Source: Raillietiella orientalis
Lineage: Eukaryota
Length of the DNA: 64,000 nucleotides
Assembly: GCA_036172245.1 (NCBI GenBank)
Contig: JAYWIR010000098.1
Location: forward strand, 1-64,000
Direction: 5' to 3'
The translations under genes and the position numbers were made by a program. The notes under the pieces were generated by a model. That model was not told the origin of the DNA and ran no database searches. It saw only the letters and a program-made list of their open reading frames with translations. Below, in pieces: positions 1 to 37,800 of this stretch. The stretch's first letter is position 1. Every line of letters begins with the position of its first letter.

Positions 1-1660
1 TGTGGCGAACTGCAAGTCACAAGCCGATCGATCACGTCCTGCACAGCACCGAACTAGATTATCGCATTTAGGCTTTCCGAGACACATTGATTTCTCTGTC
101 CGTTCACCCGTTGGTGCGATTTTCTTTAAGAACAAGGCCAAGAATTTAGGAGTCTACATTGGCGACGACTCCGCGTCGAAACTATTGTGCACCGAGATCC
201 TAGGGAAAACGGCCAAGGAAGCAGCCAAGTACACCCGAACGGACCTTGGGATGAAGCGAAAGGCTAACATATGGAACCGAGTACACCTTATAAAAGTGCA
301 CTTCGGGGCGGCCTTCGCGAGGATGAACAATGACACCACGAGGGAGTTCGACAAGCTGAAGAGAAAAACACTGTGGGGCCACTATTGCCCAAGAGTCTGT
401 CTAAAACCCCTGTGTGGTCCCAGGGAAGAAGGCGGTCCCGGGATGAAGTCGCCTGCACACTCCATAGAAATCATCGATACGCGAAACATCCTGGACATTG
501 CCACTCACTGGGGTTACTGGCCGTATGCGGCGCACAGGGCCTGCGCGTTGTTGTTGAACAACTCGAAACCCCTGATGACTGCGCTGCTAGGCCGAGCATG
601 CGAATGGAAAAAAATCGACCCAACCTGGACGAGGGAGCAACGGCTGGTGCAAAAGCACAAAATCAAGATCGCGCTAAGCAGTAGGGAACTCTGGCAGGAC
701 GAGTCCATCCTGGTGATCCCTTGGATGCTTCCTGTCCCGCCGGACACGAGAAACTGGATCCACCAGAGGTCCAGAGTTACCATTCAACGAATTCAGGTGT
801 GGAAACGAGGAGGGTACCTACATCACGCTCGTATACTGAGGTATATAGAGATCATGTTAGGGAGGTTTACCCACATTACTCGCGGAGTGTGGTTCAATCA
901 CAACGACTTTGCGTGGTCCAGGGTAACCAAAACATACCTTTGAAGACTAATTCAAGAAGAAAACAGTGATACTAGTTCCCTCCAGGAAGCCGCCGATCGC
1001 TACGGGAGTGACCGGATCAACCTGTTTGCGATTAACACGACGCTCTGGAGGAGTGACCTTCCGCCAAGCAACCAGGATGACCTCCTGATGTTTTATCATG
1101 GAGGAATCCAGAGTGGGTCATGATTGCAGCACTACACCGGAAGAATAGAAGATCGAGACTGCTCAGCATGTGGAGACGTCGACACGAGACTTCACGTCTT
1201 GACGTATCCTACATTGCTACATGACTGGCTGATCCTCAAAAGGATCATCGGACTCACCACCAGGTCCGTAATGGAGATCCTCGCCGCGATGTTTCAGGGG
1301 GATGGTAATGTTCCCTGTTACAATCCCATGGTGAGGACGACCATCGCCCTCTTCATCACCGCCATACTTGTGCTGTGTGGAAAATGAGAAAAGCCAGAAA
1401 AGGCGCACCATCGACGGACATCCCTCAAGGGCTCCTGAAGAGGGAAATCGGCATTAGAAACTGTGGGAAAATTTAAGCCTGGACGTACCGATTAATCCTG
1501 AAGAGGATAGAATACGACGCTCGGGACCAAACAGCAGGAAACCCACCATGAGTGCAGAACTTGTGAGATCCCAAGGACTTCATAGTAGTAAAAAAAGTGC
1601 TGATGGTATGGATGAGATTGTAGTGTGAATGTTTTAAAAGAAAAATTTTAGAAAAAAAAA
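1..1660 (+). mobile_element. Family B L1/Tx1-like element, 3' part: end of APE, ~1.44 kb internal deletion, post-RT region, CCHC finger, A-rich tail
   Basis: 1-118 nearly identical to 62003-62120, then jumps to match ~63566 onward (YLGVCIGNDS-like). CSACGDVDTRLHV finger at ~1160-1200. A-rich tail 1636-1660. Confidence 0.85.
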
Positions 1661-3052
1661 TTTACCCCACCCCTCGTGGGACTTGGGGAAAACTGCCGAG
1701 TCGGCGATGGAGCGACTGCATACAGCGTGCTTTTGCTCGTCGCGACGCTGCTTTTTACGGCTTTCGTAGCCTTTGCCGAGGGTCTTGCGCTGCAGTGGGG
1801 CTGTCCGGAACTCGGAAGGGACAACGGAACGGGGCAAGAAGTCTTCGCACTGTTGCGATCTTCCTGTTTTCCTACCTTTCTCTCCAGGGTGTTACGAAGA
1901 TTTCCTGGTTCCTGGCTCGGAGAGGTGCCTGCGACTTCGGCAGAGAGGGAAGGCACGGCACGCGTCAAACCCTCGCGCCCCTTTTTAATTGGCTTCCCCG
2001 CCGTGACTTTCCCCTTTTGGGGCGTAGCGGGCGGGGATGCTTTCTTTTCATCCGGGGATCGCTCGTGGTTTTTTGCGAGTTTTTGCGGAAGACGTTTTTT
2101 ATTTGCCACTGCGGCTTTTCGTGCAGTGGTTTCTTGAATACGAAGAATTTCCGCTCCGGCTCTTTTTCTAGCAAGTACCGGGCACTTTTTGATTTCGTGC
2201 CCGGAATCTTTGCAATAGAGGCATCTTGGAGAGGGGCACTCTTCAATTCGGTGCCCATCCTTGCCGCACTGCTTGCACGTGCGAGTCTGGCCTATGAACC
2301 ACAGGTAAACGACCGTGCCGTTCACTTGCAGCTGCTCAGGCACAACACGCCTGTTCGTGCCGGTGATCCGCGCGGAGGCTTGTCCAATGTGGACAGAGGG
2401 GAAATCCTTTGGAGGATTTGACCTCCTCCACAGAGCCTGCACGGTGGCGAACTTCGGCAGCACACTTACGACATCGCGGTCGGAGATTTCCGATTCGATG
2501 TCGCATAATTGAACGACAAAAGAGTCGTCCATCGCGGTAGGTAGGACTTCCTTGCCATTCATGGTCAACGGTGTACGGAGAAGGCGCTGCACAAGTGCTG
2601 CGTTGTTGCACCGAATCTTTGTATATTCCATCCTGCCAGCAGGCATTATGACAAGGAGTTCCTCCTCGCGAACGCCGATCCGGACGAGCTCATCATTGAG
2701 CTCACGACCGATTCTCCCGTTGAGGGGCCCACTGACCTTACAACGGAGTGCAGGCATGTATCCTGATGACACATATTCCTGGAACTCCGCATCTCAGGGT
2801 CCTGGTCTTTGGGAGGTAACGGCGGCGTAACTCCTCACCGGGGGCGAGGAAACCATTACGGAAAATGAGGCCACTTCATGTGCAGCTGAAGTGCATCCAG
2901 TGGCTTGCTCCTCCACACTATCCTGTGTACTGGCCATGTTGCCCTATGTGACTTGGCAGATTGCACAGAAACACACAAGTGCGAGCGTAAACGCAGGCAC
3001 AAAGTTGCCCGATCGTTGGCGCGAATAGACGCGGAAACACTTCTGCACTGTA
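1661..3052 (-). mobile_element. Family A element, 5' part: 5' UTR plus ORF1 (ATG ~2856, one stop), cut off by the family B insertion
   Basis: ORF 1648-2772 has CKQCGKDGHRIEEC and CLYCKDSGHEIKKC knuckles and is homologous to ORF1 at 21435-23057. Degenerate 5' motif CAGTGCAGAAGTGTTTCC at ~3033-3050. Confidence 0.85.
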
Positions 3053-5020
3053 CGAGCGCAGCAGATCGAGCGTGTCTCGGGTGGACGGCTGCTGTGGCGT
3101 TGCGGCACCGTTAAATCTTGCGGTGTCGCGTTCCTGCTTTGTCCAGCTGTCGAGGCTGCGGCGAAGGGCGTACGGTTCGATAGTGCCGGTCGCGTAGGGC
3201 AGTTGACCATTAAGTTGTCCGACTCCAACGATCTAATCATTACCAGCGTGTAGTCCCCAAGCTGCAGCGACGCGCTAAGGTCAAAGGCAAGGAGAGATTC
3301 CTACCTTACCCTGAGGCGCGAATATCTGGACGAAGCGGAAGTGCGCAAAGTGCACCTAATCGCAGGTGACTTTAACCTGCGCCTGCTGTCAGGTGCGTCC
3401 GACACACTTCGGGACCGCGTGAACGAGCTGTGCGCAGAGATGCACACGCGCAACTCGTTCGTGGGAGATCCGGAAATGGCCGACAGCGTAAATCACGTAT
3501 TTTTTCAGCCGCACCTATGCTCACGCGTAAGCAGGCGCGGCAAGTTACCGTCGGAACTGTCGGACCATGACCGGATCGTACTCCAGGTGAGCCCACACGA
3601 TAGGGGTCCGCCGTCATTTGCGTGGCGCTTACCGGGGGACTGGCTGAAACTTACAGAAGCCGCGGAGCATTTACAATTATTCATACGAGGTTGCAGCTTT
3701 TAGACGCTTCAGGACTGGGACCGCTTCAAGCGCTCTGTCCGGAATTTTTGCGACGAGTTCCCTATGAACCTCCTGCCTCCCGGGTTTGGTGAATGCTTGC
3801 GTAACGAGAGATGTTATTTACAATCTCGATGTCGCGACACTAGACGTACGCAGGCTAGACGAATACCGTGCGGGAGCCAAAAGGCAGGCGTGGCAATCCG
3901 TGTCGGTTAGCTTACTGGACGACCAGGGTTCGGAGCACTCAGCCGCGCCCACGTAAAATGCTTATTAAGAAAATTCTAATCCTCCCTGTACGCGCGCGCT
4001 TCACTGGAACGAATGTCTCGCGACTTCTTCTTCCGGAAGGCGCTTCGGCGTTCAGGGAGGAAGATAGAAAGACCCTCGACGAGCCTTTCACGATGGGCGA
4101 GATCATCTCGGTCATCTGAAAGCTCAAGAGGCGGAAGGCTGCAGGGTAGGACGACTTACCAGCGGAATTTTTCCAATGTTTCGCGGCAGAGTTCACTCCC
4201 CTGGTGAAGAAACTCACCTTGCTTATCCGCGAAACGGGCGACGTCCCCGCCTCGTTTCGTTCGGCAAAGGTGCGTCCCTTCCCTAAGGGAGGAGACCTTC
4301 GGAGCATGAGCAACTGGCGGCCGATTACCGTGATAAACGCGGACGCCAAGTTGCTGAAGAAATTGTGGGCTGAACGCCTAAGGCGGTTAGCGGAAAGCTT
4401 CATTAGCCCGGAGCAGACATTTGCTGTTCCCGGGCGGAGCATGGATGCCAACCTGTTCCTCGCCAGCATTTTTTTCGTGCTTTAACAGGAAAGGGTCAGG
4501 ATGGGCAACCGGACTTTCGGAATTTCTGCCGCTAGGAAACGGGATGTTTGGAGAAGGGGAGGGAGCCCTTGCAGTCGCAGTCAATTTGCATAAAGCATTC
4601 TACTGTGTCGACCAGAGGCTCCTCCTGGAGCTGCTGGAACGCTTGGGCTTCCCGGTATCTTTGTCGACCTACCTGCGATCCTGCTGGCGCGACGGTTTCA
4701 TCCAGATCTTTTTCAGTGGACACACCGTGCACGGCGTACCAATGCGACGCGGCATACGGCAGGGCGACCGTGACGGCCCCACAGCAGACTGTGATCCCTT
4801 CCCGTGCCCTTCAGATCTTGATTTTATATATTTCTTGTTTTTTGTTTTATTTTTTTGTTTTGTCCTTGGCCCCTCTGCTGTCGTGGTGGACCGAGCCGGA
4901 ATAGGAACCAGTGACCCGGCAGGCTTTATTTTGTATCCCAGTGAGTGGCCGGACCACCTGGTCAGACACCAACGTTTGATTTATTCCAAAGAATGAACGC
5001 CCCGGCGCAACCGGTTGAAA
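3053..5020 (+). mobile_element. Family A element, 3' part: APE remainder, RT N-half, ~1.7 kb deletion at ~4768, 3' UTR and terminal hairpin
   Basis: GDFN, SDH, NWRPIT and GIRQGD motifs. Inverted close copy of 46095-49740. Ends AATGAACGCCCCGGCGCAACCGGTTGAAAA. Confidence 0.85.
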
Positions 5021-5558
5021 ATCGAGTTCACGGATGGCGAAGCCCGGAGATTTTGGCGAGGATGCTCCGCCTCCTCCGAATTGCTAAGTTAGTCGGCCGG
5101 CAGCCTTCAGACCTTCCTCGGAGGCCCTTTGTTAGGCGGGAGGAGCTGAAACTCCAGTCTCGGATGATCCGAAATCGCGGACATCAGCCGCCCTCTCCTA
5201 CCTACTCGTGAGAGCAGGTGTTCATCCAGGAACGCATGGTCCGACGATCTCTCCATCCCGGGCTCACCAGCAAGCAAGTTTTGTACGCGCACGGGCGCGC
5301 ATACCTCGCTCACCAGTTGCTTCTCCCTCAAGCGGCATCTCTCCTCTGTTAACAGGTGGACGTTGAAGTGTCCTGCAAGGAGGTGTGACACGTTAGGGCC
5401 GGAGTCAGCGAACCAGCGGATGCGCAGGCCATTCAGGAATGCAAGTCGCTGGGCGTAATGCCGTCCGCCGTTCGGCGCGTAGATGTTCGTAGCGACCAGG
5501 TAGATCAAATCGGACCACTTGAGGACAAGTTGGCCTACTCTAGCTTCCTCGTCGAACT
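5021..5558 (-). pseudogene. APE endonuclease fragment (target of neighbouring insertions)
   Basis: NIYAP, AGHFN, SDH motifs; inverted copy of 45555-46094. Confidence 0.85.
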
Positions 5559-5559
5559 A

Positions 5560-7100
5560 TACAGACGTGTTTCTCCTGCACTCCTACAGCTTCAGTCAGA
5601 GAAGTCTTCTTAATTTCTTTTCGTGTGATAAAGTGTGTGGCGCATCGTCGGTGTCCCATGGCAGAAATGTCAGCGGACCCCGCAATGGAGATTGGAGTAG
5701 GAGAGGCTAGTTCCTCTCCCCAGCCCAAGCATGGTGAAGTCGATTGCCCTCACGGAGGCGAGGGCATCGGTTCAATTGAAAAAGGGTGCAAGCGTGTCCT
5801 CGGAGCCAATTTCGCCAACGAAGAGGACTTGGAGCCCCGTGGCTGCAGCACCATGCGCTGATGCCATGGCCGAACAAACAGCATATAAGGAACAAGGGTA
5901 CAAGCCGTCCCTCATCTCTAAGGTAGGCAATACTTTGTTGGAAATACCGCTCGCAACTTTGACAGGGAGTTGCAGCGGCTTAATGTGAAAGAAGAAGAGT
6001 TGGAAGGTCTTTCAGTGTAACGCGGTGGTCAGCGGGTGCAGTTGACTTGTGAGGATGCAAGCCTGGCTGAACGCCTGCTGAACACTTCCATTTCGCTGGA
6101 AGCCAGAAAGCTCTTCCCTCTAACTTTGGACCGCTCGGTAGTGACGCACCTCACGGGAGTTACCCTCCGCATGTCGACGAAGCGCGTGCAGGAGGAACTC
6201 AGCAAGTTCGGCACGGTTCACGCGCTTTGGAGCAAGCCCAACGTCTTACAGTCCTATGGAAGGCTGTTTAGTGGCATGGCCGCAGCGCGTGTAACCGTGC
6301 ATGAGAACGGTGGGTTACCTCACAAGTTAGACGTCGTCAAAAAAGAGGTCGATATCTGGTACGTGGGGAAACAAAAGTTCTGCGGACACTGCGATGCAAC
6401 AGGGCACCTGAAAAAACGGTGCCCCCACATCGAGTGTTTCTTGTGCGCAGAAAAGGGCCACCTCCAGAAAATGTGCCTAAAGCGGGAGACTTTGGCACGT
6501 CCCACTACGAAAAAAGCTCAGGGGCACGCGCATACATAACTTTGAAGCCCAAGGAGGCTACAGCAAGGCGTAGCCAGAAGACAGAATTTGAAACCTCTCA
6601 GCAAACGCCGGTGCTCACATCGGGACGGAGGTCTTAGCGTACTGACGATGCAGTTAATGGAAACACAGCTGCGATGGCGAACCCTCGCCATCGCAGCGAA
6701 GATGTGGAGCACCGCTTGGTGCATTCCGGCCCGCCTTCTGGCCAGGTGTGTGTCCCGCTGCGAAGGACTCGCATCGTGTATTTTGTGCCCTGGCCGGAAG
6801 ATTCGCACATGCAGTCTACTGCTCGGGCGCATGGCAACCCTGGCAAATGAGAACCACTGGAGGGTTTGTGGCCCTGCCAACTCCTCCGCTTGGCTGGAAG
6901 AGACTGCTGGCACCTGGGTTAAGCAGAACCAAAGGTGCGGAGACCCGATGAACTGTTTGCGAGTCGGCTTTTACTCTCGCCGAACTCTCCGTGAAATTCT
7001 TGAATTTCCACCGCGTTGCACGTGGGCGGAAGGCACACTTCTTGTTTCGGCAATGCCCTTCTTCCAAAGAGCGGTACACGAAAGCCGGGTGCGGGTGAAC
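5560..7100 (+). mobile_element. Family A element: 5' UTR, ORF1 (ATG 5658, to ~6590) fused by deletion to a post-RT ORF2 segment
   Basis: 5' motif AGACGTGTTTC; knuckles CGHCDATGHLKKRC and CFLCAEKGHLQKMC; RDGGLSV motif from ~6620. Confidence 0.8.
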
Positions 7101-9229
7101 GCTTTAGGCTGCGGCGTCTGCCAGTTTCCTCATTGTCCACACGCTTAGATCCTTCTGCTTGCCCGCTATCCGGCAGGAGACTTGCATTGTCGGCTTCCGG
7201 ATGTTTTGAAGTCCCCTTCGTAAAAAGAACTCCGCCGTGGCAAGTGGGGTCGTCTCCGTCCAAGTGCTCCTGACGGGACACACGATCATGTTTCGCAACG
7301 TGCAGCGGGTGTACATGCCGGTGCGCAGGCGGTTACAGGATTCCCGACTGATGTGTTTCAACTTTACCCACGTTCCAACTGTTTCTCTCAGCCATACTCT
7401 GAAGTTGGCGGGGCTGCAGGCCATCCACCCGTTCTCCTGTGCCAGGGTGGCCATGCGTCCCAGGAGAAGTCCGCATCTTCTTATTTTCCGGCCGGGGCAC
7501 AGAAGGAAATACGCGAGTCCTTCAGTCCCGGACACACGTCTGGCAAGAAGACGGGCTGGAACGCACCAAGGGGTGCTCCACATTTTCGCTACGATGGCTA
7601 GAGTGCGCCACCGCAGCTGTGTTACCATTAACTGCATCGTCAGGACGCTAAGACCTCCGTCCCGACGTGGAGCGCACAAATCTTTCAATGGCAAACGAGG
7701 CCTCGCGCCGCCCCACAGTGCGATGCGTAGGAGGTCCTTTGTTCTTTCTTTCAGTTCACGGGGTATAAGGCAAACAAAATGCAGAGGGCGAAGGAGGAAG
7801 GCCACGAACGCGTTCCACACCGCGGCCCGTTCCGGCAAATGAAGCATCCCTTCCAGGAACGGGCCGATCGCTGACTCCACTTTGTGGAGACGAGCTGACC
7901 AGGCTTCTGACTAGCAGAACTCCCCCAACGGAAAGCCGAGGTACTCTAAGTACCTCTCCGTGAAGATCCCCAAGCGGATCCAGTCAGGCCGTCCGACCCA
8001 CGTCGCACCAACCGCTACCACCGATGACTTCGCCTTATTTAGCCGTAGTCCAGTACCGCGGCTTAGGAGATCGAAGAAATCCTCGACTGCGGCTGCCGGG
8101 GCGGACATGGGCAAAAGTAGCAGAAGATCATCGGCGTGAGCCGCTACGGCCGGCGTACCTGCACACGAGCTTGGCAGGGCAGCCAATGTCACCCTGTATG
8201 CTCTCAGCACCAGTTCGAAATAAGTGCTAAAGAGCAGGGGACTCAGGCGGTCGCCTCGCCGGATGCCGCGCCTCATCGGCACGCCGAACACGTGCTATCC
8301 TCTGAAAAACAAGTTGATGATCGCATTGCGCCAGCAGGCGCGCAGGTAGACCGTCAACATGTCCGCGAATCCCTTGAGATCCAGGAGCTACAAAAGGAAT
8401 TCCTGGTCCACGCAATCGAACGCTTTGTGCAGATCGACTGCGATCGCTACAGCCCCCTTTTCTTTCCGGTGGTCCCTACTTGCTGCGCTGGCGCCCTCAA
8501 ATCAGGTTTCTCGACATTCCGTTCTTTTTCCTTTTTTTCCTCGCGTTTCACATGGAACCATGTGCTGGCGAGGACCAGGTTCGCTTCCATGCTTCGCCCG
8601 GAAAAAGAGTACGTCTGTTCCAAGCTGACGAAGCTGTCAGCTACCAGCACCAGTCCCGCAGCCCACAGCAACTTTTCGTCCGTGTTCACAGTCGTGATTG
8701 GACGCCAGTTGCATAATTTTCTGAGGTCTTTTCCCTTAGGAAGGAGCCTCACCCTGGCTGACCGACACGAGGCGGGAACATCGTCTTAGTTTCGGATCAG
8801 CCGTGTCAATTGGAGCACCAGGAAGGTCAGCTCTGCCGCAAAGCTCTGAAAGAACTCTGCCGGCAGGCCATCCTCCCCTAGCGCCTTATGCCTCATGAGC
8901 CTTTTAATCGCGGTTATGATTTCACCGGCCGTAAAAGGCTCGTGGAGGCTTTCTTTCTCCTCCTCTTCTATGGCCGGGGCTCCATCTGGGAGCAAGCGCC
9001 GCGAGACGTTTCACTGCGTAGGTACCCTGGCGTAAAGGGAAAAGTAAAATCCACGCACGAGGCGACGTATCGATGCCGGGTCCGAGTATTTCTGGTCCAG
9101 GTCGTTTAGCACGATGGGCGGACCGGTTTGCTAGGCTTGAAGCTCGGCCCCGGCTTTGTACTCGGCCAAGCGACGGATGTCAGGGATCCTCGCGGAAAGA
9201 GAGACGTGCAAATACGCCCTTTCGTTACG
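7101..9229 (-). pseudogene. ORF2 linker/RT/post-RT fragment; 3' part of the element interrupted by 9230-14849
   Basis: EPFTAGEI, NWRPIT, AAHADD, DGGL motifs; same subfamily as 42251-45151. Confidence 0.85.
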
Positions 9230-12200
9230 GAAGGACGTGTTTTACCGTTGCTCCGTCAACAAGTACCGGAAAGCGGTTTCTTCTTGGACAGTGTGTGTTG
9301 TTTCACATCGTTGGTGTCCGATGGCATCGCTGCCAGAGGACGCCACTATGAAGGTAGGCGTGGAGGAGGCTAGTCCCCCCGCACGGCCCACTGGATCAGG
9401 TGCATTCGCCCCGGAATCATCCCCGGCAACGCCGAAGACGTGGAGCGCTATAGTGCCCGCGCCGAGCGTGAAAACCTCGGCGGAGCAAGCGGCTTACAGG
9501 GCCTCAGGATATAAACCATCTTTGGTTTATAAAGTAGGACCCCTGTTTGATGGTCGCACCGCCCGGGCCTTCAGTAAGGCACTACAGGACTTTCCTGTAA
9601 GAGAAGAGGTTCTTGACGGCCTCTCCGTACTCAGAGGGGGGCAGCGCTTGGAGGTCGTCTGCAAAGACGTAGCCTTAGCTCAGCGCCTGATAAACACTTT
9701 GTTGAATGTGGATGGCCGGAAAATCCTACTGGATAGCATGGACCGCTCCGTAGTGGTCCATCTAACTTGAATCAGAAATCGGATGACGCGCTCGGCGCTC
9801 AATTCCGAGTTGATGAAATACGGCGAGGTACACGCGTTGTGGCCAAAGCCCACCATCTTCGAAGTATTTAATAGCCATTTCGCAGGCCAGGCTGCAGCGC
9901 GTGTCACTGTCAATAAGGGTGCTGGGTTGCACCACAAACTGGAGGTCGCGAAATAATCCATCGACCTCTGGTACGTGGGAAAACCCCGCTATTGTGGCTA
10001 CTGCAATGCAGTAGGGCGCTTGCGCAAGCGGTGCCCTAACATTGAGTGCCACTAGTGGGGGTTAAGTGACACGTGCGTCGTGTGTGCCCTAAACGCCCCA
10101 CCCCGGTGCCAGCTGCTGCCAAAAAGGGGCAGGCCAAAAAAATTAACAAGGTCAAAAGACCTAAGCGAGAAACTGGCCGGCCCCAGCCGCCATCTCCTCT
10201 TCCTCTCACCCATGCGTCGGAGGATAAAATCGCGGAAGACGCGGGAGTGGAGGAGGGATGGCAACTAATAATGGCCAGCAAGGAGCAACAAGTGGTGAAA
10301 GAGCCACTGAAGAAAACGGAGAAAAAGAACACGGCCGGCAAAAAGAATAAAGCCGCGTCGCTTTCAAAAAAATCCGCGAGTGCTCGGTAGCACTGCATCA
10401 CGTGATGGTTCCTGAGGCTGCCACCAGGGGCGACGAGCCTCCCCTCGCCGATTCCGCGGCGCCCGAGGTTCGCGACGACGAACCCTCTGTTTACACAGAG
10501 AGTGAGCCGCCCGACGCGCGCGCCGACGGCGTGGTAGCCGCCTTCGCGTAGGCGGCGGAGGAGCTCGCGGTCACGCTGCCAGAGCGTTAGAATCCCTCAC
10601 GCAAGGCCGTGCGCAGGCCGGTCTGCCGAAGAAGGCCCCCGGAGGTGAGTGCGACCTGGGGGCCGTAAGTGCATCCTCCTCGTCGGAGGTATCCCCCCGG
10701 AAGACGGGACGCAAGTCCCAAAAGCCGAGGAGGCGCCTCCCCTCCACGAGGGAGGAGGAGAAGCAGGAAGCCAATGCCAGCGTGGGAAACCCGGAGGTGG
10801 AATTCCCACTCACGAAAGGCGTCGTGCAGGCTACCCCCATGGAGGAGGGTGAACAGGTAAGCGAAGTCCTCCCGCTAGTCGCAGAACCTGAACAGCACGC
10901 CTCCATGGAGAAGTGGGAACAGGGAGGCGCGCCTACAACTCAGGGTGAACCTGCCGACGCGCCGTTACCCATGGAGGAGGGGAACAAGGTGCCTTCCGCC
11001 CCTGACCCCTCCCCTCCACCTACCGTGTCGCCTTAACAGGTGTTGGACGACGCGGAGCCAATTTCCCAGGAATAACACCTGGGCTCGACTGTCGCCGTCG
11101 GATCCGCGTGGCCAGTTGGAACGTCAACGGACTGCGCGACGACGGCAACAGACGAGATACAGCCGACACCCTGCGTGACTTCGACCTGGCCCTGCTGCAG
11201 GAGATCCACGTGATCACCGCGAAAGACTTCCAGGAGATCGAAACGATCGCGGAAGTTCGGCTGTATTTGCGATGGGGCGCCCGCAACACCTGTGGGGTCG
11301 CGTTTTTCTTGAAGCCGGCCATCGACGCTGCCGTGAAGGGCGTGCGCTTCGATGACAACGGTCGGGTTGGTCAGCTGAATCTCAGCTGGTCCGATTCGAT
11401 CGACCTGATTGTCACGAATGTGTACGCCCCGAGCGGAAAAAATGGGTACAGCGACCGTACCAGGCTGCTGGAAACCTTAAGCGCGAATGGTTGGCCGATA
11501 CGAACGTGCGGAAGGCACACCTGATAGCTGGATACTTTAATCTTCCTCTGCTGTTAGGTGAGCCCGAAGCACAAGAACGCACGGCCAAGGAGTTGTGCGC
11601 TGCCGTGCGCACGCGCAACTTGCTGGCACAGGTGGAGGGAATGGACCGCAGCATAGACTACGTCTTCCTGAATGCCTACCTGTGCTTGCGGGTCGGCAAA
11701 CGGGGAGACTTGCGTCGACAGTGTCGGACCATTCCCGGTTAATCGCAGAAGTATGCCCGCGCGACAAGGGATCCCGTCCAGGGCGTAACGGCTGCCTGGG
11801 GACTGGACGCGGCTCACAGGTGCGAAGGAACACCTTCGCCAATTCCTGAGAAGAATCACCCTGCGAAATCTCGCTGACTTGGACCTCTTTGTGGAATCGG
11901 TCCGCGAGTTCTGCGAGGAGTTCATCTTGCACCTCCTGCCCACCGGATTTGGGGAAGGAGCTCGCAACCATACGGCCTATTTACAGGTCCGTCGGTAAGA
12001 GAGAAACCCCAACGTCCGTCGCCTAGCAAATTACCGAGCCGGGGCCGAACGCCAAGCCTGGCAATCCGGGTCCGGAAACGCTCGGCCCCACCCGCGATCA
12101 GGCACCTCGTGCGACGGTTCTACTCCTCCCTTAACGCCATGGCACCTTCAGAGCGTGATGCCTCGCGGCTCCTGCTTCCGGACGGAGCTTTGGCAATAGG

Positions 12201-20300: not shown

Positions 20301-23232
20301 AACGTGCGGGCCTGCAGAAAGTCTCTACCGTTGGCCACGCCCTCTCCAAAACCGGTGGAAGCCGGTGGAAGGGGAATTGGCAGCCGTGCTCGCGGACAGA
20401 TCTTTTGAGATCGTCCCAGTCAGCAAGTTCTTGAATAGCAAAGCCTCGGAGCTATCCACATAGATGCTCCGCAGCCTCCGGTTTGCTAAGTCAATCTGCC
20501 TGCATCCTCCAGTTTTGCAACAAAGGCCCCCTGCTTCACGTAACGATCTCAAACTCCAACCTGTGGTGGTCAGAGTGCCTAGTCAACAATCTTCCTGTCC
20601 TACCCACACGCGAATGCAGGTTTTCATCGAGGAAAACGTGATCTAGCCTTCTTTCCATTTCAGGTTTGCTGACCATCAAGTTGGCGGCGTGCACGAACGC
20701 GCACATCTCCATGAGCTGCGCGTGCTCCCTCGGGCGGCTCCAATCGTCGGAAAGCAGGCGGACGTTGAAGTCCCCAGCAACGAGGTGCGCCACTTGGAAG
20801 CCGGAGTTGTTGGAGCAGTGACTCTGCACCTCACCAAAGAAAGCTACTATTTCTTCGAGGTAGCGAGAGCCACTCGGCGCGTAGACGTTCGTAACGACGA
20901 GATCGATGGACTCGGACCACTTGATGACAAGCTGGCCTATCCGTCCGTCCTCATCGAAACGAAGATTACGCACCGCTTCCGCCATTTTTCCTCTTACGAG
21001 GAACGCGACGCCGCACGTGTGTGCGCCGCCGCACCGCCAATGTAGCGTTCCGCCTGCGCGCCCCTCGATTTCGGCTGCCTGCTCGTCGGAGATTACGTGA
21101 ATCTCCTGCAGCAGCGCGAGGTCGAAGGGGCGCAGGTCGTTGGCTACTAATCGCCTCTTCTCGTCGTTCTGTACTCCGTTCACGTTCCAACACGTTACGG
21201 ACAGACGACGAGAAGACAAGATTCCATGCATTACTGCTGAGAAGGTTGCGGCTTTTTGCTCGCTTTATCCGGCGAGCAGACGGCGAGCAGCACGACTGGC
21301 TGGAGGGGACGGTCGCCACCGTCCTCTGTCGTGCTGCATGCATGTAATGCCTCCACGCCAGGCTTAACCCCGTCGGGTTTCGTGGAGACTTCGCGTGGCT
21401 CCGCGGCTAGGGTTGCCTGGCTGCCTACTTTTGATCAGCGCGCACACGCTTTCGAACGAGTTATCCTCGTCTCGGTGATCGGAACGGCATCCATTTCGGA
21501 GTCCGACCGGCGCATGTTCGATCGGGTTTCGGCCTTCTGCGAAGTAGTGACAGGTTCTGCTGGATTGACAGCTGTCCTGTTATCTTTTTTCGTCTCCAGA
21601 ATATAGCTTTTGGTGACGGCTGCTTTCCCGGCGCGCGCGTTTTCAGCGTGCTCATGCGCAGTTGTACGAGGGACCTTTGCTAAAGGCTTCTTTACTTCAT
21701 TACGGTTCCTTGCTTCGCGTGGTGCCGTAAATGGAGATTGTGCTCCATTGCCATCTTTGTAGCCATCCGCGTCTTTAAACGGAAGCACTTTCGATGGCTC
21801 CGACACGCTCGTCATGGACGCTGCCTTCGGAAGAACCTTAATACCCTTCGTTGGCATGGCATCCGCGCAAGTCGAGAGCTTGCTCTCCGACTGCGACGGC
21901 GTGAGATTTTTCTCCGCTTTCGCGGTGTTGGATCGCGACGCGGATTTTTTTTTGCCGACTTTCGAAGTCGACACGGCACAACCCTTCTTACCCGATTTGG
22001 GCTTCTCAGCCACTGCAGGAGGTAAATGAATGGATCTGACGGTACTGGAAGTGTCGTTACCGCCGTTGTCCATTGGCGTCCCCGCCGGTTGCCCGAACTC
22101 CAAGAGAGCCGGGCGTGCTTGGGAAAGACAGCTATTGAGCCTAGGGGGACTTATTCTTGCCCCGGATTCCCCGCACGCTTTCTTTTGCGGCTCATCTGCC
22201 TCGAGAGGGGGTGCGCAGGGTTTCGCGTGCGAGGTTCCCTGTTGGTTTCGGGCGACATTCCGCCTGGCGTTTTTACCGAATTTCTGCCGTGGGGTCTCCA
22301 GGTTTTTCGCAGATTTTTTCTTTTTATCCGCGCTTTGTTTTCTACGATGGAGCTCTACGGCTGCCTTTTTTCGCAAAAGATCCGGGCAGTTTTTCAATTG
22401 GTGCCCGGATAGTTTGCAATAACGGCATTTTTCAGAGGGGCATTTATCCAAACAATTCCCCTCCTTCCCGCATTGCTCGCACGTTCTTACTTTGCCCACG
22501 AACCACAGGTGGACGACCGTGTCTTTCACCTGATGTTTGGTGGGCAGCAGACGGCGGTCCGGCATTGAGAGCCGGACTCCAGCGACTGCGCTGTGTATGG
22601 ACGGGAAGTCCTTGAGGTTGCTACGCACCCTCCACAGCGCATGGACCGTGGCGAATTTCGCCAACGCGTTCCGAATATCAGTATCGGAGATTTCCGTCTC
22701 GATGTCGAAAATCTCCGCCACAAATGAGTCGTCCATGGCGGCCGGGAAGACCTTCTGGCCACGGATCGACAACGGGGTGCGCAACAAGCGTTGCACAAGT
22801 GCAGCGTCTTTGCAACGCACCTTCAAATAGCAAATGTCTTTTACGGGCATAATGGCGAGAAGGTCCTCCTCCCGCACGCCAACACGGGTCAGTTCATCGT
22901 TGAACTGATTCTTGTCGTGCGCAAAAAGACAACCACTCACCTTATATCGGAGAGCATGTCTATAGCGTTCTGCTACGTATGCCCGCAACTCCGACTCGTC
23001 GAGTGGTTTCCTTTTGACGGCTGCTGTGGCAGCAACGTCAGCAAAACTCCTCTTCATTGGCGAGAAAGACGAAGTGGAGGCGGCCGTCGGTTCTGCGATT
23101 GCAGATCCGGATGCTGTTCCTTCAACTTCAGTAGCTTAAAGTTGGGTCGACATCGTCGTCAAAAAGTAGGACGCCAAGATGAAACGGATGAAAGCACGGA
23201 GACGAGAGCGAAGAAAAACACGTCCGCACTCG
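17324..23232 (-). mobile_element. Full-length family A element (ORF2 ~21231-17638, disrupted) inserted in sense orientation at the GDFN codons of another element
   Basis: 5' GAGTGCGGACGTGTTTTT, CWNVNG, GDFN, SDH, YADD (~19230), AATAAA plus hairpin at 17324-17354. Confidence 0.9.
21435..23057 (-). CDS. ORF1 gag-like nucleic-acid-binding protein (540 aa open; true ORF probably extends on both sides)
   Basis: SFADV N-terminal motif, probable RRM-like region, CEQCGKEGNCLDKC and CRYCKLSGHQLKNC, basic disordered tail. Confidence 0.75.
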   Translation of the reverse strand: MKRSFADVAATAAVKRKPLDESELRAYVAERYRHALRYKVSGCLFAHDKNQFNDELTRVGVREEDLLAIMPVKDICYLKVRCKDAALVQRLLRTPLSIRGQKVFPAAMDDSFVAEIFDIETEISDTDIRNALAKFATVHALWRVRSNLKDFPSIHSAVAGVRLSMPDRRLLPTKHQVKDTVVHLWFVGKVRTCEQCGKEGNCLDKCPSEKCRYCKLSGHQLKNCPDLLRKKAAVELHRRKQSADKKKKSAKNLETPRQKFGKNARRNVARNQQGTSHAKPCAPPLEADEPQKKACGESGARISPPRLNSCLSQARPALLEFGQPAGTPMDNGGNDTSSTVRSIHLPPAVAEKPKSGKKGCAVSTSKVGKKKSASRSNTAKAEKNLTPSQSESKLSTCADAMPTKGIKVLPKAASMTSVSEPSKVLPFKDADGYKDGNGAQSPFTAPREARNRNEVKKPLAKVPRTTAHEHAENARAGKAAVTKSYILETKKDNRTAVNPAEPVTTSQKAETRSNMRRSDSEMDAVPITETRITRSKACAR

Positions 23233-25365
23233 ATTGAAATCTCCCGCTATCAGGTGAGCCTTTCGCACATCGGTATCCGCCAGCCAGTCGCGTTTCAGGG
23301 TTTCCAGCAGCCTGGTGCGGTCGCGGTACCCCTGTTTGCCGCTGGGGCCATACACGTTTGTGACGATTAGGTCGATCGAGTCGCACCAGCTGAGAGTCAG
23401 CTGACCGATCCGACCGTCGTCATCAAACCGCACGCCCTTTACGGCAGCGTCGATGGCCGGCTTCACGAAGAACGCGCCCCGCAGGTGTTTCGAAGGCCGC
23501 ATCGATAATACAACCGACCCCCCGCGATCGTCTCGATCTCCTGGGCGTCTGCCGCGGTGATCACGTGGATCTCCTGCAGCAGCGCCAGGTCGAGCTCACA
23601 CAGGGTGTCGGCCGTATCTCGCCTGTTGCCGTCGTCGCGCAGCCCGTTGACGTTCCAAGAGGCCGCGCAAATCCGACAGCGACTGGCGAGGCCAGGTGTT
23701 AGTCCTGGGAAAACAAGGATGCGGCGTCCGCCACCTGCTTGGGCAGGACGCTAGGTGGAGGGGGAGGGCGCACAGGTACTGAAGGCATCTGTTCCTCCTC
23801 CTCCATCGGTGCCGGCGCGTCGGGCCGATCACCCTCAGGTGGAGTCGCGCCTACCTGTTCGCCCTCCTCCATGGGTTCGGGCTGCTCAGGTTTCCCGAGT
23901 GGATGGAGGACTTCACCCCCCTGCTCACCCTCTTCCATGGGGGTGGCCGACTCGACGGCTTCCGGGCGTGGGTGTTCCCCTCCGGGATTCCCACGCTGCC
24001 GCTTCCTTCCGGCTTCTCCTCCTCGATGGTGGAGGGGAGGCGCCTCCTGGGTTTCTGGGACTTGCGTCCCGACTTCCTGGCGGGTGCCTCCTAGAAGAAG
24101 GATCCGCTTCCGGCCCCCAGGTCGCACTCATTTGCGGGGGCCTTCTTCGTCGGAGCCGACCTGCGTACTCCCTTGCGCGACGGGGTTTCGTGCTCGGCGA
24201 GCGTTGCTGCGAGGTCCTCCGGCGCTTTCTCGAAGGCCGCGTCTTCGCCAGCGGCGACCGTTGCCGCAGGCTGCTCCGCGACCTTATCGAGCGCGGCGTC
24301 ATCGCTGACGGCGAACGTTGCCGGGGGCTCCTCCGCGACTTTATCGAGCGCGGCGTCCTGGCTGTCGGCGCGCGAGTCTCGCGTCTCACCCTCTAAACGT
24401 AAAATGGGCTGGTCCACGCGAGCATTCATCGCGTCCGTATCAGCTGTTTGCTGAACATTGCCGCGGGCGGCCTCGGCAGGAACGGCTAAGCGTTCCAGTG
24501 CCACCGGGCATTCGCGGAGTTGTTTTTTTTTTGAAAGTGGCGCGGCTTTTTTCTTTTTGACGGCAGTTTTCTTCTCCGACTTTTCTTCTAACAACACTTC
24601 CTTTTTTTTTTCTTTTCTGGCCTGAATTAGCTGCCAACCCTTCTTTATTTCCGCGTTCACGGGAGCGCTTTCCCAAGACGCCTGTACGGGAGGAAGGGAG
24701 GCTGGCAGTCGGGAACGGCCATTTTCGCGAGCTGGTCTTACTACCAGCTTTTCACGTTTTCCCTGCGCCTTTTTGGCGGCAGGAGGAACCGGGGTGAGGC
24801 GCTTGTGGCACACGCGCCGAACGTAACCCTTTTCGCCGCATAGGTGGCACACAAGGTGCAGGCACCTTTTTCGTAGATGCCCTACTGCATTGCAGTAGCA
24901 ACAAAATTGGCGTTTCCCCACGTACCAGAGGTCCACCGCTTCTTGGCAGACCTCCAGCTCGTAGGGAAGCGCACCACCCTCTTTTACTGTGATACGCGCC
25001 GCAGCTTGACCTCCGAAAAGGCTATTGTAGCCTTGGAAAATCGTGGACTGCGGCCACAACGCGAGCACTTCTCCGTTCTTTTGTAGCTGTTCTCGAACCG
25101 CTGACCTCGTCATGCGACTGCAGATCCCAGTGAGATGGACCACCACCGAGCGGTCCATCGTTATCGGCAAGATCTTCCCACCATCAACGATCAGCGGGTC
25201 GGTGATCATGCGTCGGGCCAAGGTGATATCTTTGCATACCACCTCTACCCACTGGCAACGCTGCCATCGGACACCGACGATGTGCACGCCAAACCACTTA
25301 GCAAGAAACCACTCGCCTTGCCACGCAAACGGAGCGCAGGAAAAGCACGTCCTCTCTCTACAGAG
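23233..25365 (-). mobile_element. Family A element, 5' part: 5' UTR, ORF1 with ~320 bp deletion at ~25250, APE up to GDFN
   Basis: Close direct copy of 40059-42250; two knuckles; SWNVNG. Confidence 0.85.
24220..24362 (-). repeat. 57-bp coding tandem repeat (~2.5-3 copies, DAALDKVAE...), also at ~40790-40938
   Basis: TTATCGAGCGCGGCGTC at 24284 and 24341. Confidence 0.85.
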
Positions 25366-25545
25366 GGGATTTGGAGAAGGTGTCAGGAACGAGCGAACCT
25401 ACCTTCAGGCCCGCCGGTATTCCAGACGTCCTGACGTTCGTCGCCTGGCGGAATTCAAAGCTGAGGCGGAGAGGCAGGCCTGGCAGTCAGGCTTGGCCTG
25501 CTTCCTGGACCATCAGGGCCAAGAACGCTCCAGCCCAGCTCAGGT

Positions 25546-27764: not shown

Positions 27765-30526
27765 AGCCCAGCTCAGGTAAGCCGCATCATGCAGGAGTTT
27801 TCTTCCCCCCTGTACGCGTCATTAACACCCGAGTGCCAATTCCCGCAGCGGTTGCTGCCGGATGGGGCTCCCGCGATCGGGGAGGAAGTTTGTTCCAGGT
27901 TGTCGGAACCATTTACGGTGACAGAGATTGTCTCCGCCATAAGTAAATTAAAGACAAGAAAGGCACCAGGGGAGGACGGCCTGCCCGCGGAGTTTTACAA
28001 ACACTTCGCGAAAGAGCTTGCACCCCTGGTGCTCAGGCTAAGTACGCTGATCCACGAACACGGCGAAGTTCCCGCCTCGTTCCGATCAGCAAAAGTACGT
28101 CTCCTGCCGAAGTGAGGAGACCTACGCAACATTAGCAACTGGCGTCATATCGCAGTGGTGAATGCGGACGCAAAGTTGTATGTCAAATTGTGGCCTGAGC
28201 GTTTAGGACCGGTGGCGGATTCCGTGATCAGCCCGGAGCAAACATACGCTGTTCCCGGGCAAACCATGGAATCCAACCTACTCCTCGCCAGCACATGGTA
28301 ACAGTTGCAACAGCGCGTTGCAGAGGACGGTCAAGGGAGCCTTGAGCACCCCTCTGACCAGAGAGACCCGGTTCAGGGTGAGGCGGAATCAGCGGGAGCC
28401 TTCGCCGTCGCTGTCGAATTGCGCAAAGCATTCGACTGCGTCGACCAGCATCTCCTTCTGGAGCTCCTGGAACGAACGGGATTCTTGTCCGTGCTTCAGT
28501 CGTACCGGCGCTCCTGCTGGCGCAACGCGTACATAAATATTGGTTTCAGCGGCCGGCACGTGTACGGCGTGCCAGTGCGCCGCGGCATCCGGCAGCCTGA
28601 ACCCCTTGCTCTGCAGCATCTACTTTGAGTTGGTGCTGAGTGCATACAGGGTAACTCTGGCAACCCTGCCTAACTCGTGTCCCGGCACGCCTGCCGTTTC
28701 GGCCTATGCAGACGATTTTCTGCTGCTGCTTCCCGGGTCCACCCCGGCGAGTGCGCTCGAGGATTTCTTCGAGCTGCTGCGTCGCGGGACGGGCCTGGAG
28801 GTGAACGGGGCGAAGTCGTCTATGGTCTTTGTCGGTACGGCGTGGGCTGGTCGGTCGGACTGGATCCGCTTGGGGAACCCCACGGGCAGGTGCTTCAAGT
28901 ACCTCGGCGTTCCGTTGGGGGACTTCTCCGCAGCAGAAGGCTGGTCCGACCGTCTCCGAAAGGCAGCGTTGGCGATCGGTCTGTTCCAAGAAAGCAAGTT
29001 TTACTTGCAGGAACTGGCCGCAGTGTGGAACGTTTTTGCGGCCCCCCTTCTACGCCCTTTACTTTTTGTGTGTCCCGTTCCTTATTTTGTCAGGAAAAGA
29101 GCAGCGGACCTCCTACGGCCAGTCCTTTTGGGCAAAGGGAGGTCCCGTTTGCGTCTTAAAGACTTGTGCGCTCCACGTAAGGACGGTGGACTTGGCCTTC
29201 TTAAGATGGAGCGTATGGAAGTACAATTTCAGTTCAGGGTTCTCGCCCTTGCATCGGAATTGTAGGACACGCCTTGGTGCAGTTCAGCACGACTTCTATC
29301 CCAGCGAGCCTCAGGATATGGCGGACTTTCTTCGTTTCTCTGGGCGCGCGACCACAGACAAGCACACTCCGGCTTTCATCTGCGGCGCATGGCCGCTGTG
29401 GTTCGGAAGAACACCTGGATCTCCTGCGTCCCAGGGAACTACTCGGCATGGTTGCACGAGTCAGTCTTCACTTGGGAAAAGTTTTACGTTCCGGCGGTCA
29501 CAAAAAACACTTGCCCGAAAAAGCACGCCCGCTGGACGCTACAGGAGATCGTGCAGTCCCACGATTAGCTTCTGTGGGCCCTGATAACCCCACTTGCTCC
29601 TGTGCTGCCCTTCCTACAAAACGCTAGAGACAACAGGGAGCAGTGGAAATGGACCGTGTCCTGCACCATCGGAAGTAGGACACAAAAGATTAAGGCGTCG
29701 ACATCTCGGCAGCTAGCGGACGCTGCGACGCCGAGTGTCTTGCCCAACGGATTCCGACGCTGGGGAGAGCTACTCGGACTATCTGCGGAGGAGATGAAGT
29801 GGCCCCCAGCATCTTGGGATAGTGACTTCCTTCCCCTGAAATGGCAGGAGGTGGCGCTGCTCGTGATACATTGGAATTTACCCTTCAAGGCACGCCTCTC
29901 TCACTCCACTCGGGGGGCTGTGGATTCCCAGTGGGACCGGTGCGGGGAGAAAGAGACATTCCCCCACCTCCTTATTGAGTGCATTGCTCTCCCCCCTCTC
30001 TGGGATCGTCTTGAAGCAATCCTGGACATTCGCGGAGGCGGCCCTAAAGACGTTTTTAGGCGACTCTTCTTGCGTGATGCCTTGTCCCCTCTTGCTTCTG
30101 TGGCAGTTCTTTGCTGCATTAGAGGGATCGTGTCGGCTTGGAACGCGACAACAAGAAGGCACCAAGCTTGCGGCAATGTTGTACATTAAACTCGCCTTTT
30201 GTGAGAAACATTTGCAGGTGGAGACACCTGGGTGCACAACGGACGCAGCTTGTGAAGATCCTGAACAGGATCTAGAGGACCTTTAAGCGTGCAATGTGAT
30301 TCCCTTCGCGCCCCTCCCTCCTTAAACATAAGTACCCTCTTCAACTTTAACATTTTTTTATTTGTTTCGTTTTTTTCTTCCCATTTCCGCGCGTTGGAAG
30401 GACCTCGCCGGTTTAGAACTGGCAAGAAGCAGGCTGCTTTGTGCTGAACCATCAGGTTCTTCACCCGGAGATTACATGTATTTTTATTTTTTTTAAAATA
30501 AATGCCCCGGCATATTTGGGTAAAAA

Positions 30527-34898: not shown

Positions 34899-37800
34899 TC
34901 GCGAAGGCGCGCGTAACCATGGACGACCGGAGGCTCATGCCTTTGCAGATTCTGCTCGGTGACGTTGTCGTCTATCTCCGGTTTCCCGGGCAAACAACCG
35001 CTTGCAGCAACTGCGGGAAGGAGGGCCATCGTACGGGGAAGTGCCCAACACGCAGTTGCCGATACTGTAAGCTGCTCGGTGACTCGATGAACGAGTGCGC
35101 CGAGCTAAAACGAAAGAGGAGGGCGAGAAACCTTTTCGCAACATCGCCGTCCGCGCCGACACCATCCGCCCCGTCGTCGGGGAAAAAATCCGGCGCCAAG
35201 GAGAATTCGCAGCGGAGAAGTGAAAAGTCCGCTTGCGCGGGCGATTCTCGGAGCAACGCTCCACAAAAACCCGCGCGAAAGGACAAGAAGCTTCTCCAAG
35301 CTGCCTCAGTAAAGTCCCGAGCGACCCAGTCCGATGATAACATCGGGCAGGCTGCAAAACAGCCGCTTCCGTCCGCTCTCGCTCCGAAGCAAAAAAGCGG
35401 TGGCACGCACGGGAAGACCACCGGAGCGTCGAAAAATGGGGTCGCGCGCCCCTTTGCCCGCGTCAAAGAAGCCGGCTAAGGCGGGCCGAACGCCAGCAAA
35501 CGCTAAAAAGCCTCGCGCGACCCCCAAGAATCCCGCGACTCTGCTCGCATCTTCCGGTAAGGAGGTGCAGAAGGCAAACGTGACCAAGGAGACACTGGCC
35601 TCCATCGCCGTATCCGAGGCCTTGGGAAGGATGCGAAGCACCCTGGAAGCCCCCTTGCCCAACCGAGGCAAACAGGAAGGCGGCGAGGATGGCTGGAACT
35701 TCGTCGGGGGAAAGAAGAAGCGCAAACTGCGCGATCCTTACCACTTCCCGATCAAAAAGGTAGGCGGGGTGAAGATACAACCCCGCGCGCCCAGAAAGGC
35801 GCAAGGAAAAGCCTCTGTTGCCGCCGCGCGCGCTTCCGCAAACACCCGCGGCGAGAGGAAATCCGCCGAAGCCGAGATCCCGAAAGGGGGATCGGCGACG
35901 AAGGCACCCTCTGAGAGTGCTGGACCAGCTCCGGGCTGCCAGCAAAAAAAGAGGCAGGCTAAACGCCCGCCGCGCACGCGCAATTCGGACTCTGAGGTGG
36001 AGTCCGAGGGCAGCGCTCAGGCTCACCAAGCGCCGGTCAAGGCCAGGGCTGCGAGCAAGCCAAAACTTGCCAGGCAAGCGCCTGATGCCGGGAACGGTTC
36101 CGGATGCTCCTCGGAGCCCGAGGCAATGGTCCTCGACTCCACCGAGCCAGCCGCGAGCGGCGCGGCGGGGACAGAAAGAGCTTTTACTACCTCATCCGCC
36201 GTGCTCCTGGCTGATGCCTCGCCGGACGGGGCGAGAAACGCACCTCCATGTCCGCAGCAGCAATGCGCGGTCTCGCTTCTTCCCGGCGCGTCCGAGTGGC
36301 CTGTTGGAACGTCAACGGGCTCTAGGACAGCGAGAAGAGGCGATTAGTTGCCAACGTCTAGCGCGACTTCGATCTGGCCCTGCTGCAAGAGATTCAGGCA
36401 CTCTCCGAGCAACAAGCGGCCGATCTGCAAGTTCGCGCAGGCGGGACGCTCCATTGGAGGTCAGGCTCCCAGAATACCTGCGGAGTCGCATTCTTTGTCC
36501 GGGGCAGGGTGGCGGGAGCGATGCGGAGCGTTTGTTTCGACGAGGAAGTTCGTGTGGGCGAACTTGTTCTCAAGTGGTCCAAATCGATCAACCTTGTCGT
36601 CATGAACGTGTGCGCGCCGAGAGGCTCCGCGCGTCACGCCGAGAAACTGGAGTTTTTCGAGAGACTGCGCGACCGCTGGCTCAGCAACTCCGGCCCCGAC
36701 GTGGCTCACCTCGTAGCCGGGGACTTTAACGTCCACGCGCTATCGGAGGAGTCTCACCGTCGCCGGGAGAAACGGCTGGTCAACGAGGTGTGCGCGTCGG
36801 TGCACGCCTCGAATTTGCTGACCGAGGAACCCGAAATGCGTGCTTTGTTTGACCATGTGTTCCTCGACGATCACCTGCATTGCCGGGTGGGTCGAAGAGG
36901 TCCCGTGCCGTCCGAGCTTTCCGACCACTACAATCTGGAGTTTGAGCTACTCCCGGCAGGCAAGGGCCCTCCGACGCACGTCTGGAGTAGCCGACCGAAT
37001 GGCTGAGAAATCCGGTGGCTGCGGAGCACCTCCGCCAGGATCTCCGGACCTTTGCCGTTCGAGAACTCGTTTACTGGGACGATCTGTAAGATCGGTCCGC
37101 GAGTTCTGCAGCCGGTTTGCCTTGCGCCTGCTTCCCCGTGGCTTCGGGGGAGGCGTTGCCAACAGCAGAGATTATCTGCAGGCCCGCCAATTCTTCCGAT
37201 GCGCGGACGTCCGGTACCTTGCGGAGTACAAGGCCAGGGCTGAGCGCCAGGGCTGGCAGTCAGGAGCAGCTTGTCCGGTTGACGACCAGGGCCTGAAGTG
37301 CTCGTGCGCGGACGAAGTTTGCCGCATCCTAAAGCGCTACTACTTTTCGTTGTATGCTAGGGAGCCGACGAAACCCAGTCTCTCGGAGCTGCTTCTCCCG
37401 GCAAATTAACTTGCGGTCGACGAGGAGGAACGCGCCACTCTGGACTTTCCTTTCACGGCGGCAGAAGTGTCTTCCGCTATAGCGGGCCGCAAGTAGCCCA
37501 AGGTGCAAGGTGAGGATGGTATGCCTACGGAATTCTTCCAGTTCTTCGAGGCGGAACTCATCCCCCTGGTGCTGAGGCTTTCTGCGCTGGTGCGAGAGAC
37601 GGGCAATGCACCGTCTTCGTTTCGCTCAGCAAGGCTGCGCCCCTTGCCGAAAGGCGGAGACATGCCCCATTTAAGCAACTGGCATCCCATCACCCTGGTG
37701 AATGCGGACGTCAAGTTGTTGTCCATGCTCTGGGTCGCGCGCCTAGGCAGGATCGCTGGATCCGTGGTAAGTCCGGAGCAGTCTCACGCTGTTCCCGGGC

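Follow-up and report, generated by a model that had tools for sequence, protein, structure and literature searches.

The DNA analysed here, positions 1-64,000 of contig JAYWIR010000098.1 of Raillietiella orientalis (hereafter the window, 64 kb in length), is a eukaryotic graveyard of long interspersed nuclear elements (LINEs), chiefly of plant/algal-type L1. Parts of three nested LINEs occupy both of its ends: (i) a plus-strand L1 (Z), (ii) a minus-strand L1 lying within Z (X), and (iii) a plus-strand LINE lying within X (B). Their order along the window is B 3' - X 5' - Z 3' ... 48.5 kb ... Z 5' - X 3' - B 5'. The two ends hold complementary halves of the elements, with short duplications at the junctions and heterogeneous sequence identity. 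The features of the nest, and of a reference locus carrying an uninterrupted L1, are as follows:

1-1660, plus strand: LINE B copy 1, 3' part, from the end of the AP-endonuclease (APE) domain to the A-rich tail (1652-1660), delimited by blastn against copy 2, alignment and junction sequences.
1-102, plus strand: exact tract identical to 62003-62104, cut by the window start and holding the shared TAG at 69-71.
1661-1708: 3' copy of the proposed B target-site duplication (TSD), consisting of 1661-1672 and 1695-1708 split by a 22-bp insert (1673-1694).
1661-3052, minus strand: L1 X, 5' half, with a full-length 5' end (TACAG...GTGTTTCC), the 5' untranslated region (UTR) and open reading frame (ORF) 1 with two CCHC knuckles.
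3053-3066: copy of the X TSD adjoining the X 5' end, CGAGCGCAGCAGAT.
3053-5021, plus strand: L1 Z, right part, ORF2 from about codon 40, with the terminus AATGAACGCC..CCGGTTGAAAA at 4992-5021.
5022-5556, minus strand: flank not belonging to Z, a piece of the APE of an older L1 in antisense, in common with 46094-45560 beside the reference copy.
45545-51884, minus strand: reference locus, an older L1 fragment on the plus strand into which the uninterrupted L1 (46095-51630, minus strand) has inserted.
54055-55977, plus strand: L1 Z, left part, with the 5' UTR, ORF1 and the first ~40 ORF2 codons (..FDLVLLQEMH..).
55964-55977: copy of the X TSD adjoining the X 3' end, CAAGCGCAGGAGAT.
55978-59949, minus strand: L1 X, 3' half, with the ORF1 end (stop 59868-59866), the ORF2 ATG (59863), APE, reverse transcriptase (RT), 3' UTR and the canonical terminus AATAAACGCC..CCGGGTGAAAAA.
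59924-59949: 5' copy of the proposed 26-bp B TSD, whose distal half is a 12-mer pointed out in an earlier note on this DNA.
59950-64000, plus strand: LINE B copy 2, 5' part, with the ORF1 ATG at 59955 and one in-frame stop in ORF1, APE at 61543-62070 and RT at 62272-63834.
62136-63565, plus strand: 1,430-bp segment of B absent from copy 1, which includes the whole RT domain.

The insertion of X into Z is marked by a 14-bp repeat. The 5' terminal TACAG of X at position 3052 abuts the repeat 3053-3066, and the opposite end of the element, CCGGGTGAAAAA at 55978 with its A5 tail, abuts the repeat 55964-55977. The earlier note had paired these two flanks at 12 of 14 positions, and the pairing is confirmed: it is unique in the window, where a search for other 12/14 matches to either 14-mer found none, and in the uninterrupted L1 at 46.1-51.6 kb the two 14-mers correspond to one and the same stretch of 14 bases (49752-49739). 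The X-in-Z target-site duplication is therefore confirmed. The halves of Z join in frame (..HVISAEQAQEI|ERVSGGRLLW..), collinearly with ..HVIFANQATEIKRISGGRLLW.. of the uninterrupted copy, the sequence across the join being ..AQEI|ERVSGG.. as compared with ..ATEIKRISGG.. Inside the X TSD, the right part of Z sides with the left part, not with the reference copy, at 3/3 sites where those two differ. The site taken by X is uninterrupted in all other L1 copies of the window that retain it (8/8).

For the insertion of B into X, the earlier note had paired 59924-59935 with 1661-1672. This match (9/12, all differences being transitions) was reproduced, but the 12-mer is not adjacent to the 5' end of B. 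The homology of X to Y, a near-complete minus-strand L1 at 17.5-23.3 kb which served as the mapping reference, includes the conserved inter-ORF hairpin and extends 13 bp past the boundary assumed in that note, to position 59948; B therefore starts near 59950, six bases before its ORF1 ATG. The assumed boundary was thus about 14 bp off, and the 12-mer lies 13-14 bp inside X. Matches of the same 9/12 grade occur at 25-42 other window positions (per-position frequency 4-7e-4), and the probability of such a pair is 0.015 with the 3' side alone anchored and 45 registers free. When the pair is placed in a new register (59924-59949 vs 1661-1708, one 22-bp gap), both junctions are anchored and 19 of 26 positions agree. 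This score was reached by none of 4000 composition-matched shuffles and by 5 of 4000 random window pairs, all five of which score at least 23 and are true repeats. On these alignments, a 26-bp target-site duplication of B in X is likely but not proven. ORF1 of X is open for 22 codons across the B/X join, with its stop 2 nt before the ORF2 ATG, and its tail is short relative to that of Y (alignment end at residue 246 of 381 vs 293 of 566). The length of the ORF1 tail varies across the L1 family, and three L1 lineages retain the short hairpin (GCTCGC..loop..GCGAGC) between ORF1 and ORF2 (59923-59942; 21270-21290, minus strand; ~36220-36240).

LINE B is unrelated to the L1s of the window, and its RT relatives are at most 29% identical (11 matches in a protein search). 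Besides the TAG at 62071-62073, copy 2 contains another stop and one frameshift. The two copies align plus/plus in two segments, 1-133 with 62003-62135 (97.0% identity) and 132-567 with 63566-64000 (86.9%), and hence in direct orientation. The two offsets, 62,002 and 63,434, differ because copy 1 lacks 1,430 bp of B; this is the origin of the 62-63.4 kb range. The deletion junction is located at 133/134 of copy 1 and shows 2 bp of microhomology. Base by base, there are no differences in the first 102 positions, then 4 in 31, and then 56 in 436 with 1 gap (33 transitions and 23 transversions; 24/11/21 over the codon positions), which gives 60 substitutions plus the 1,430-bp indel for the whole overlap (1-567 vs 62003-64000). 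The exact tract stops 31 bp short of the deletion. The differences between the copies are close to neutral: the pN/pS ratio is 0.63 (p = 0.06), with out-of-frame controls at 0.69 and 1.22, and divergence shaped by selection was dropped on this ground. Repeat-induced point mutation (RIP)-like change of B was dropped in view of the transition:transversion ratio of 33:23. The stop codon which the earlier note described as shared by both copies (TAG 69-71 / 62071-62073) is a true nonsense codon lying close upstream of the SDH motif of APE; it is not independent evidence, since it falls inside the exact tract.

The outer limits of the composite are marked by a third pair of repeats, absent from the earlier note, which lie beside two further L1s, V on the right and W on the left:

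5551-5560: right outer boundary of the composite, GTCGAACTAT, with the 5' end of L1 V (5560 onward) directly after it.
51885-54051, minus strand: L1 W, left flank of the nest, 5'-truncated within RT, with the homology ending at 54040 or possibly at 54051.
54035-54044: left outer boundary, GTCGAACTAT.

The two 10-mers are identical (10/10), and the window contains exactly these two copies. V was considered as a paralog of the left part of Z and rejected, as blastn found no similarity between them. Support for the three junctions is graded, being strong for X/Z, dependent on the revised register for B/X, and a 10/10 match for the outer pair.

The relationship of Z to the reference locus is complex. 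The host fragment at that locus is divided into 45545-46094 and 51640-51884, pieces which abut at 2370 / 2375 in the coordinates of a relative, which marks this fragment as the true insertion flank of the uninterrupted L1. The uninterrupted L1 itself is a clean antisense insertion in the APE region of an older L1, with an apparent duplication of ~5 bp (TCGAG). Between the right part of Z (3063-4768) and 49742-48032 the identity is 89%, with 186 differences in 1,723 columns spread evenly over the codon positions (67/65/54), for which reason selection-shaped divergence was dropped here as well. A 1,690-bp internal deletion lies at 4768/4773, and the following segment (4773-5556) is 91% identical to 46341-45560, the similarity crossing the L1 terminus into the antisense APE fragment. 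Reading 4773-5556 as a composite 3' UTR was rejected, given that a canonical L1 terminus is already present at 4992-5021. The left part of Z is 59% identical overall to the 5' half of the reference copy, with patches of 70-72 matches per 100 columns, and its ORF1 portion at 54-56 kb is merely collinear with that copy in patches of 74-83%. The earlier claim that both parts of Z match the 46-51.6 kb subfamily thus holds for the ORF2 part, at 89%, but not for the ORF1 part, at 59% globally. As judged from these alignments, Z is chimeric with respect to the copy at 46-51.6 kb.

Three exact tracts stand out within pairs which are otherwise 87-91% identical: one of 188 bp (5002-5189 = 45927-46114) spanning the boundary between Z and its non-Z flank, one of 105 bp (24223-24327 vs 40801-40905), and the one of 102 bp in B (1-102 vs 62003-62104). 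Their lengths (102-188 bp), far above expectation, point to patches of gene conversion or to artefacts of polishing. The switch to high identity in Z occurs 9-22 bp to the right of the X insertion, and the high-identity tracts end 9-31 bp from large heterologies, as expected for homology-dependent conversion. That 3063-5556 and 49742-45560 share an L1 3' end together with 530 bp of flank outside that element indicates that DNA-level copying operates in this region, which speaks for a DNA-level origin of the second nest too. Our preferred reading is that the right part of Z was copied by DNA-level repair or conversion from the neighbouring inverted L1 locus; the X heterology would have limited such copying at one end, and at the other it would have rejoined at a TCGAA microhomology.

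Data from outside the window bear on the B/X join. Only one public run (X1) was found to contain part of 1-6000 (0.06 share of words); of its 511 contigs, 350 are less than 90% alike and represent mainly diverged family members, giving no view of the flanks. One of these contigs, 595 letters in length, matches 1649-1999 (16 differences), continues with 134 unlike letters and then matches 1404-1508 (14 differences). It thus carries 339 letters of X beside 12 letters of the B tail and, later, 105 letters of B, and therefore the B/X join is present outside this assembly. Another contig spans 2190-3053, ending at the X/Z junction. Metagenome contigs were also scanned by exact pattern, once for the X/Z junction and once for the identical tract of B, with 0 matches. 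Over B (1-1334) the summed contig word depth in run X1 is 65-69, several-fold that over the L1 pieces (2-42); depth does not equal copy number, but B may outnumber the L1 family in that run.

The remainder of the window is of the same nature. Its GC content is 52-62%, it contains no Ns, an Rfam scan of the window gave 0 matches, and no non-repeat genes were found in the 64 kb. Stop-to-stop ORFs on both strands encode RT, APE and CCHC domains; the domain scan covered 150 of the 227 ORFs of at least 110 aa, and 15 of those scanned were positive, the Pfam matches being RVT_1, Exo_endo_phos and zf-CCHC. When every piece of the window was placed on Y by tblastx, about 30 L1-like fragments in both orientations were distinguished. 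The family has the characters of plant/algal-type L1, namely CCHC knuckles in ORF1, APE followed by RT in ORF2, and plant L1 relatives: among the 22 RT relatives returned the best match is 60%, and the named ones are L1-type proteins of plants that carry zf-RVT or RNase H. The 5' terminus takes the form TACAG..GGACGTGTTT, and the 3' terminus the form AATAAACGCC..GGCG..CCGGGTG followed by 4-5 A. Tandem repeats are confined to ORF1 tails; 57-bp units in about three copies occur in the tails at 24194-24370 and 40775-40948, which belong to two L1 copies of 91% identity. A loose inverted collinearity involving several elements links 3063-11264 with 49742-40058 at 72% to 91% identity, interrupted midway by ~1.2-1.5 kb without homology, and may be a remnant of an older inverted duplication. 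Elsewhere, a minus-strand L1 (25545-27764) lies inside a plus-strand L1, flanked by a 13-bp TSD (AGCCCAGCTCAGG; 25532-25544 / 27765-27777). The 3' end of W, beside 51872-51884, is at the same homologous nucleotide as this insertion after 25544, in a different plus-strand fragment; the coincidence of the two sites (after 25544 and after 51884) reflects either a site preference or a very old paralogy.

A single nest is insufficient to explain the window, because its halves stand in reversed linear order and the overlapping segments of B are two distinct copies. The earlier note proposed that the same nest exists twice in direct orientation within a tandem macro-unit of 62-63.4 kb. The direct repetition of the nest remains the most economical account, with three split junction pairs and in-frame joins in Z and in ORF1 of X, while the word tandem goes further than the data. 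We regard as probable a DNA-level direct duplication of the nest, subsequently changed by deletions and conversion-like patches, of which a tandem duplication is the simplest version. The following sequence of events would account for the window: (i) L1 Z inserted between the L1 fragments W and V; (ii) L1 X inserted antisense into the start of Z ORF2; (iii) LINE B inserted into the end of X ORF1; and (iv) the nest was copied at the DNA level, giving two direct copies 62.0-63.4 kb apart, so that the window would run from the middle of B in the first copy to the middle of B in the second. A possible route is the tandem duplication of a ~62-63 kb unit through unequal recombination between direct L1 copies or through a replication-based event. 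The copies would then have diverged by ~10-13%, deletions in copy 1 would have removed 1,430 bp from B and 1,690 bp from Z, gene conversion would have homogenised short stretches, and the right part of Z in copy 1 would have been replaced from the neighbouring inverted L1 locus, together with 530 bp of its flank. The presence of the second halves outside the window is inferred from this scheme, as are the tandem layout and a mechanism of repair or conversion.

Several observations weigh against a duplication of this kind. The window spans scarcely one unit; the sequence present in two copies amounts to just 0.57-2 kb, all of it in B, and no observation shows a second copy of the 48.5 kb separating the nests or of the predicted missing halves. 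The divergence between the B copies is not uniform, contrary to the expectation for a simple tandem duplication, and therefore a later conversion event is required; likewise, an extra event is needed to explain why the right part of Z is 89-91% identical to the reference copy and the left part 59%. The B duplication requires a 22-bp indel and has an identity of just 73%. The left outer 10-mer lies 10-11 nt from the Z 5' terminal TACAG and may fall wholly inside W, and the right one is not at the Z 3' terminus (5021), as 530 bp of non-Z flank intervenes. Finally, the 595-letter contig is 95% identical on the X side and at most 87% on the B side.

The alternative that survives best, although we consider it unlikely, is a direct non-tandem duplication or a complex rearrangement, in which a nest of ~15 kb with short flanks was placed ~48 kb away, or two partial nests were left by duplications and deletions, the 48.5 kb between them being single-copy. 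It agrees with the confinement of homology within the window to B, with an outer shared flank of 10 bp only, and with the presence of other local copied patches of 2.5-4 kb in the region. A dispersed copy, however, would normally be set in new surroundings, and here both nests carry the same outer 10-mer; moreover, a spacing equal to the unit length is given by a tandem event without extra assumptions.

A rather improbable alternative is an assembly or polishing artefact: B at the left end would be chimeric or mis-joined, or the duplication false, the exact tracts would result from paralog-driven polishing, and the real molecule would carry one nest or some other arrangement. Bases 1-102 equal 62003-62104, after which the identity falls to 87%, the exact tracts (102-188 bp) approximate the length of short reads, and the window start is possibly a contig start. 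Against this, a substitution divergence of 13%, one gap in 436 bp and a private 1,430-bp deletion are not error-like, the window is free of Ns, the B/X join is carried by a contig of another run, and a single nest cannot yield the observed order on a linear molecule.

It is very unlikely that the two nests were built independently, each layer having inserted twice at one site through a positional preference of LINEs. Such a preference would be in line with the two minus-strand L1s that share one homologous insertion nucleotide (after 25544 and after 51884), both lying antisense and each with its own 5' truncation point, with the different relationships of the two parts of Z to the reference copy, and with the targeting of existing copies reported for Zepp-type L1s (PMC8226300). 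Three coincident sites would nevertheless be required, one of them with the 10-mer repeated exactly in surroundings that are not homologous; no motif is common to the TSDs of the different events (14, 13, 10 and ~5 bp), the X site is intact in each of the eight other copies mentioned above, and the differences between the B copies are near neutral. A circular molecule or a simple end overlap is ruled out by the 13% divergence and the indel, and a haplotypic false duplication was dropped because the divergence is too high and the copies lie 48 kb apart.

Returning to the duplicated nest, its split TSDs illustrate that repeats at window ends can reveal a duplication larger than the window, and that comparison of TSDs with an uninterrupted relative sorts real pairs from chance pairs. 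If the duplication is true, an L1-rich block grows by DNA-level duplication, deletion and conversion besides new insertions, which bears on the expansion of retrotransposon-built heterochromatin or centromere-like regions. A more far-reaching version, which we hold to be unlikely, is that the L1-only region is a higher-order tandem repeat of LINE nests with a unit of ~62-63 kb, a centromere-like array built of retrotransposons whose partial homogeneity is maintained by conversion tracts that halt at indel heterologies, or else that LINEs rebuild the nest by nucleotide-precise mutual targeting. In practical terms, the exact 102-bp tract at the window edge flags a spot of the assembly for checking.

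Nested retrotransposon insertions are reconstructed from split TSDs, the classic case being the intergenic nests of maize. As in those nests, younger elements lie here in older ones and the short direct repeat of each layer maps to one site of an intact relative; unlike in them, the halves are in the wrong linear order, with the right halves at the window start and the left halves at its end, and therefore duplication must be added to nesting. Segmental and tandem duplications of repeat-rich chromatin arise through unequal recombination between dispersed repeats. The direct orientation, the spacing of tens of kb, the private deletions and the patchy gene conversion are shared with such duplications, whereas here the unit is seen only in part, no junction was identified and the divergence of the overlap is heterogeneous. 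In L1 3' transduction, a daughter element carries the 3' flank of its source, with the A-tail after that flank. Z resembles such a daughter in carrying the flank 5022-5556 (= 46094-45560), with the shared stretch ending at the outer repeat, and in having an upstream flank (W) which differs from that of the source (the 51640-51884 fragment). 3' transduction would account for the shared downstream flank, but not for the missing A-tail (there is no A-run at 5545-5556) or for the left part of Z, which is 59% identical to the 5' half of the source; DNA-level repair or conversion is preferred because the identity switch lies 9-22 bp from the X insertion.

The nest is reminiscent of the Zepp and ZeppL L1 clusters of green algae (PMC8226300; bioRxiv 10.1101/2025.03.28.645958) in its plant/algal-type L1 affinities, in the density of L1s and in L1-in-L1 nesting. 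A centromeric cluster of the Zepp type is recognised by phylogenetic grouping with Zepp and by its occurrence once per chromosome. The elements described here differ from the Zepp and ZeppL clusters in occurring on both strands and in being in several cases full length, not arrays of 3' ends, and an unrelated LINE (B) is included within the nest. Current understanding is not overturned by these observations: the structure is a common sort of LINE nest, probably duplicated through an event that is likewise well known from repeat-rich DNA.

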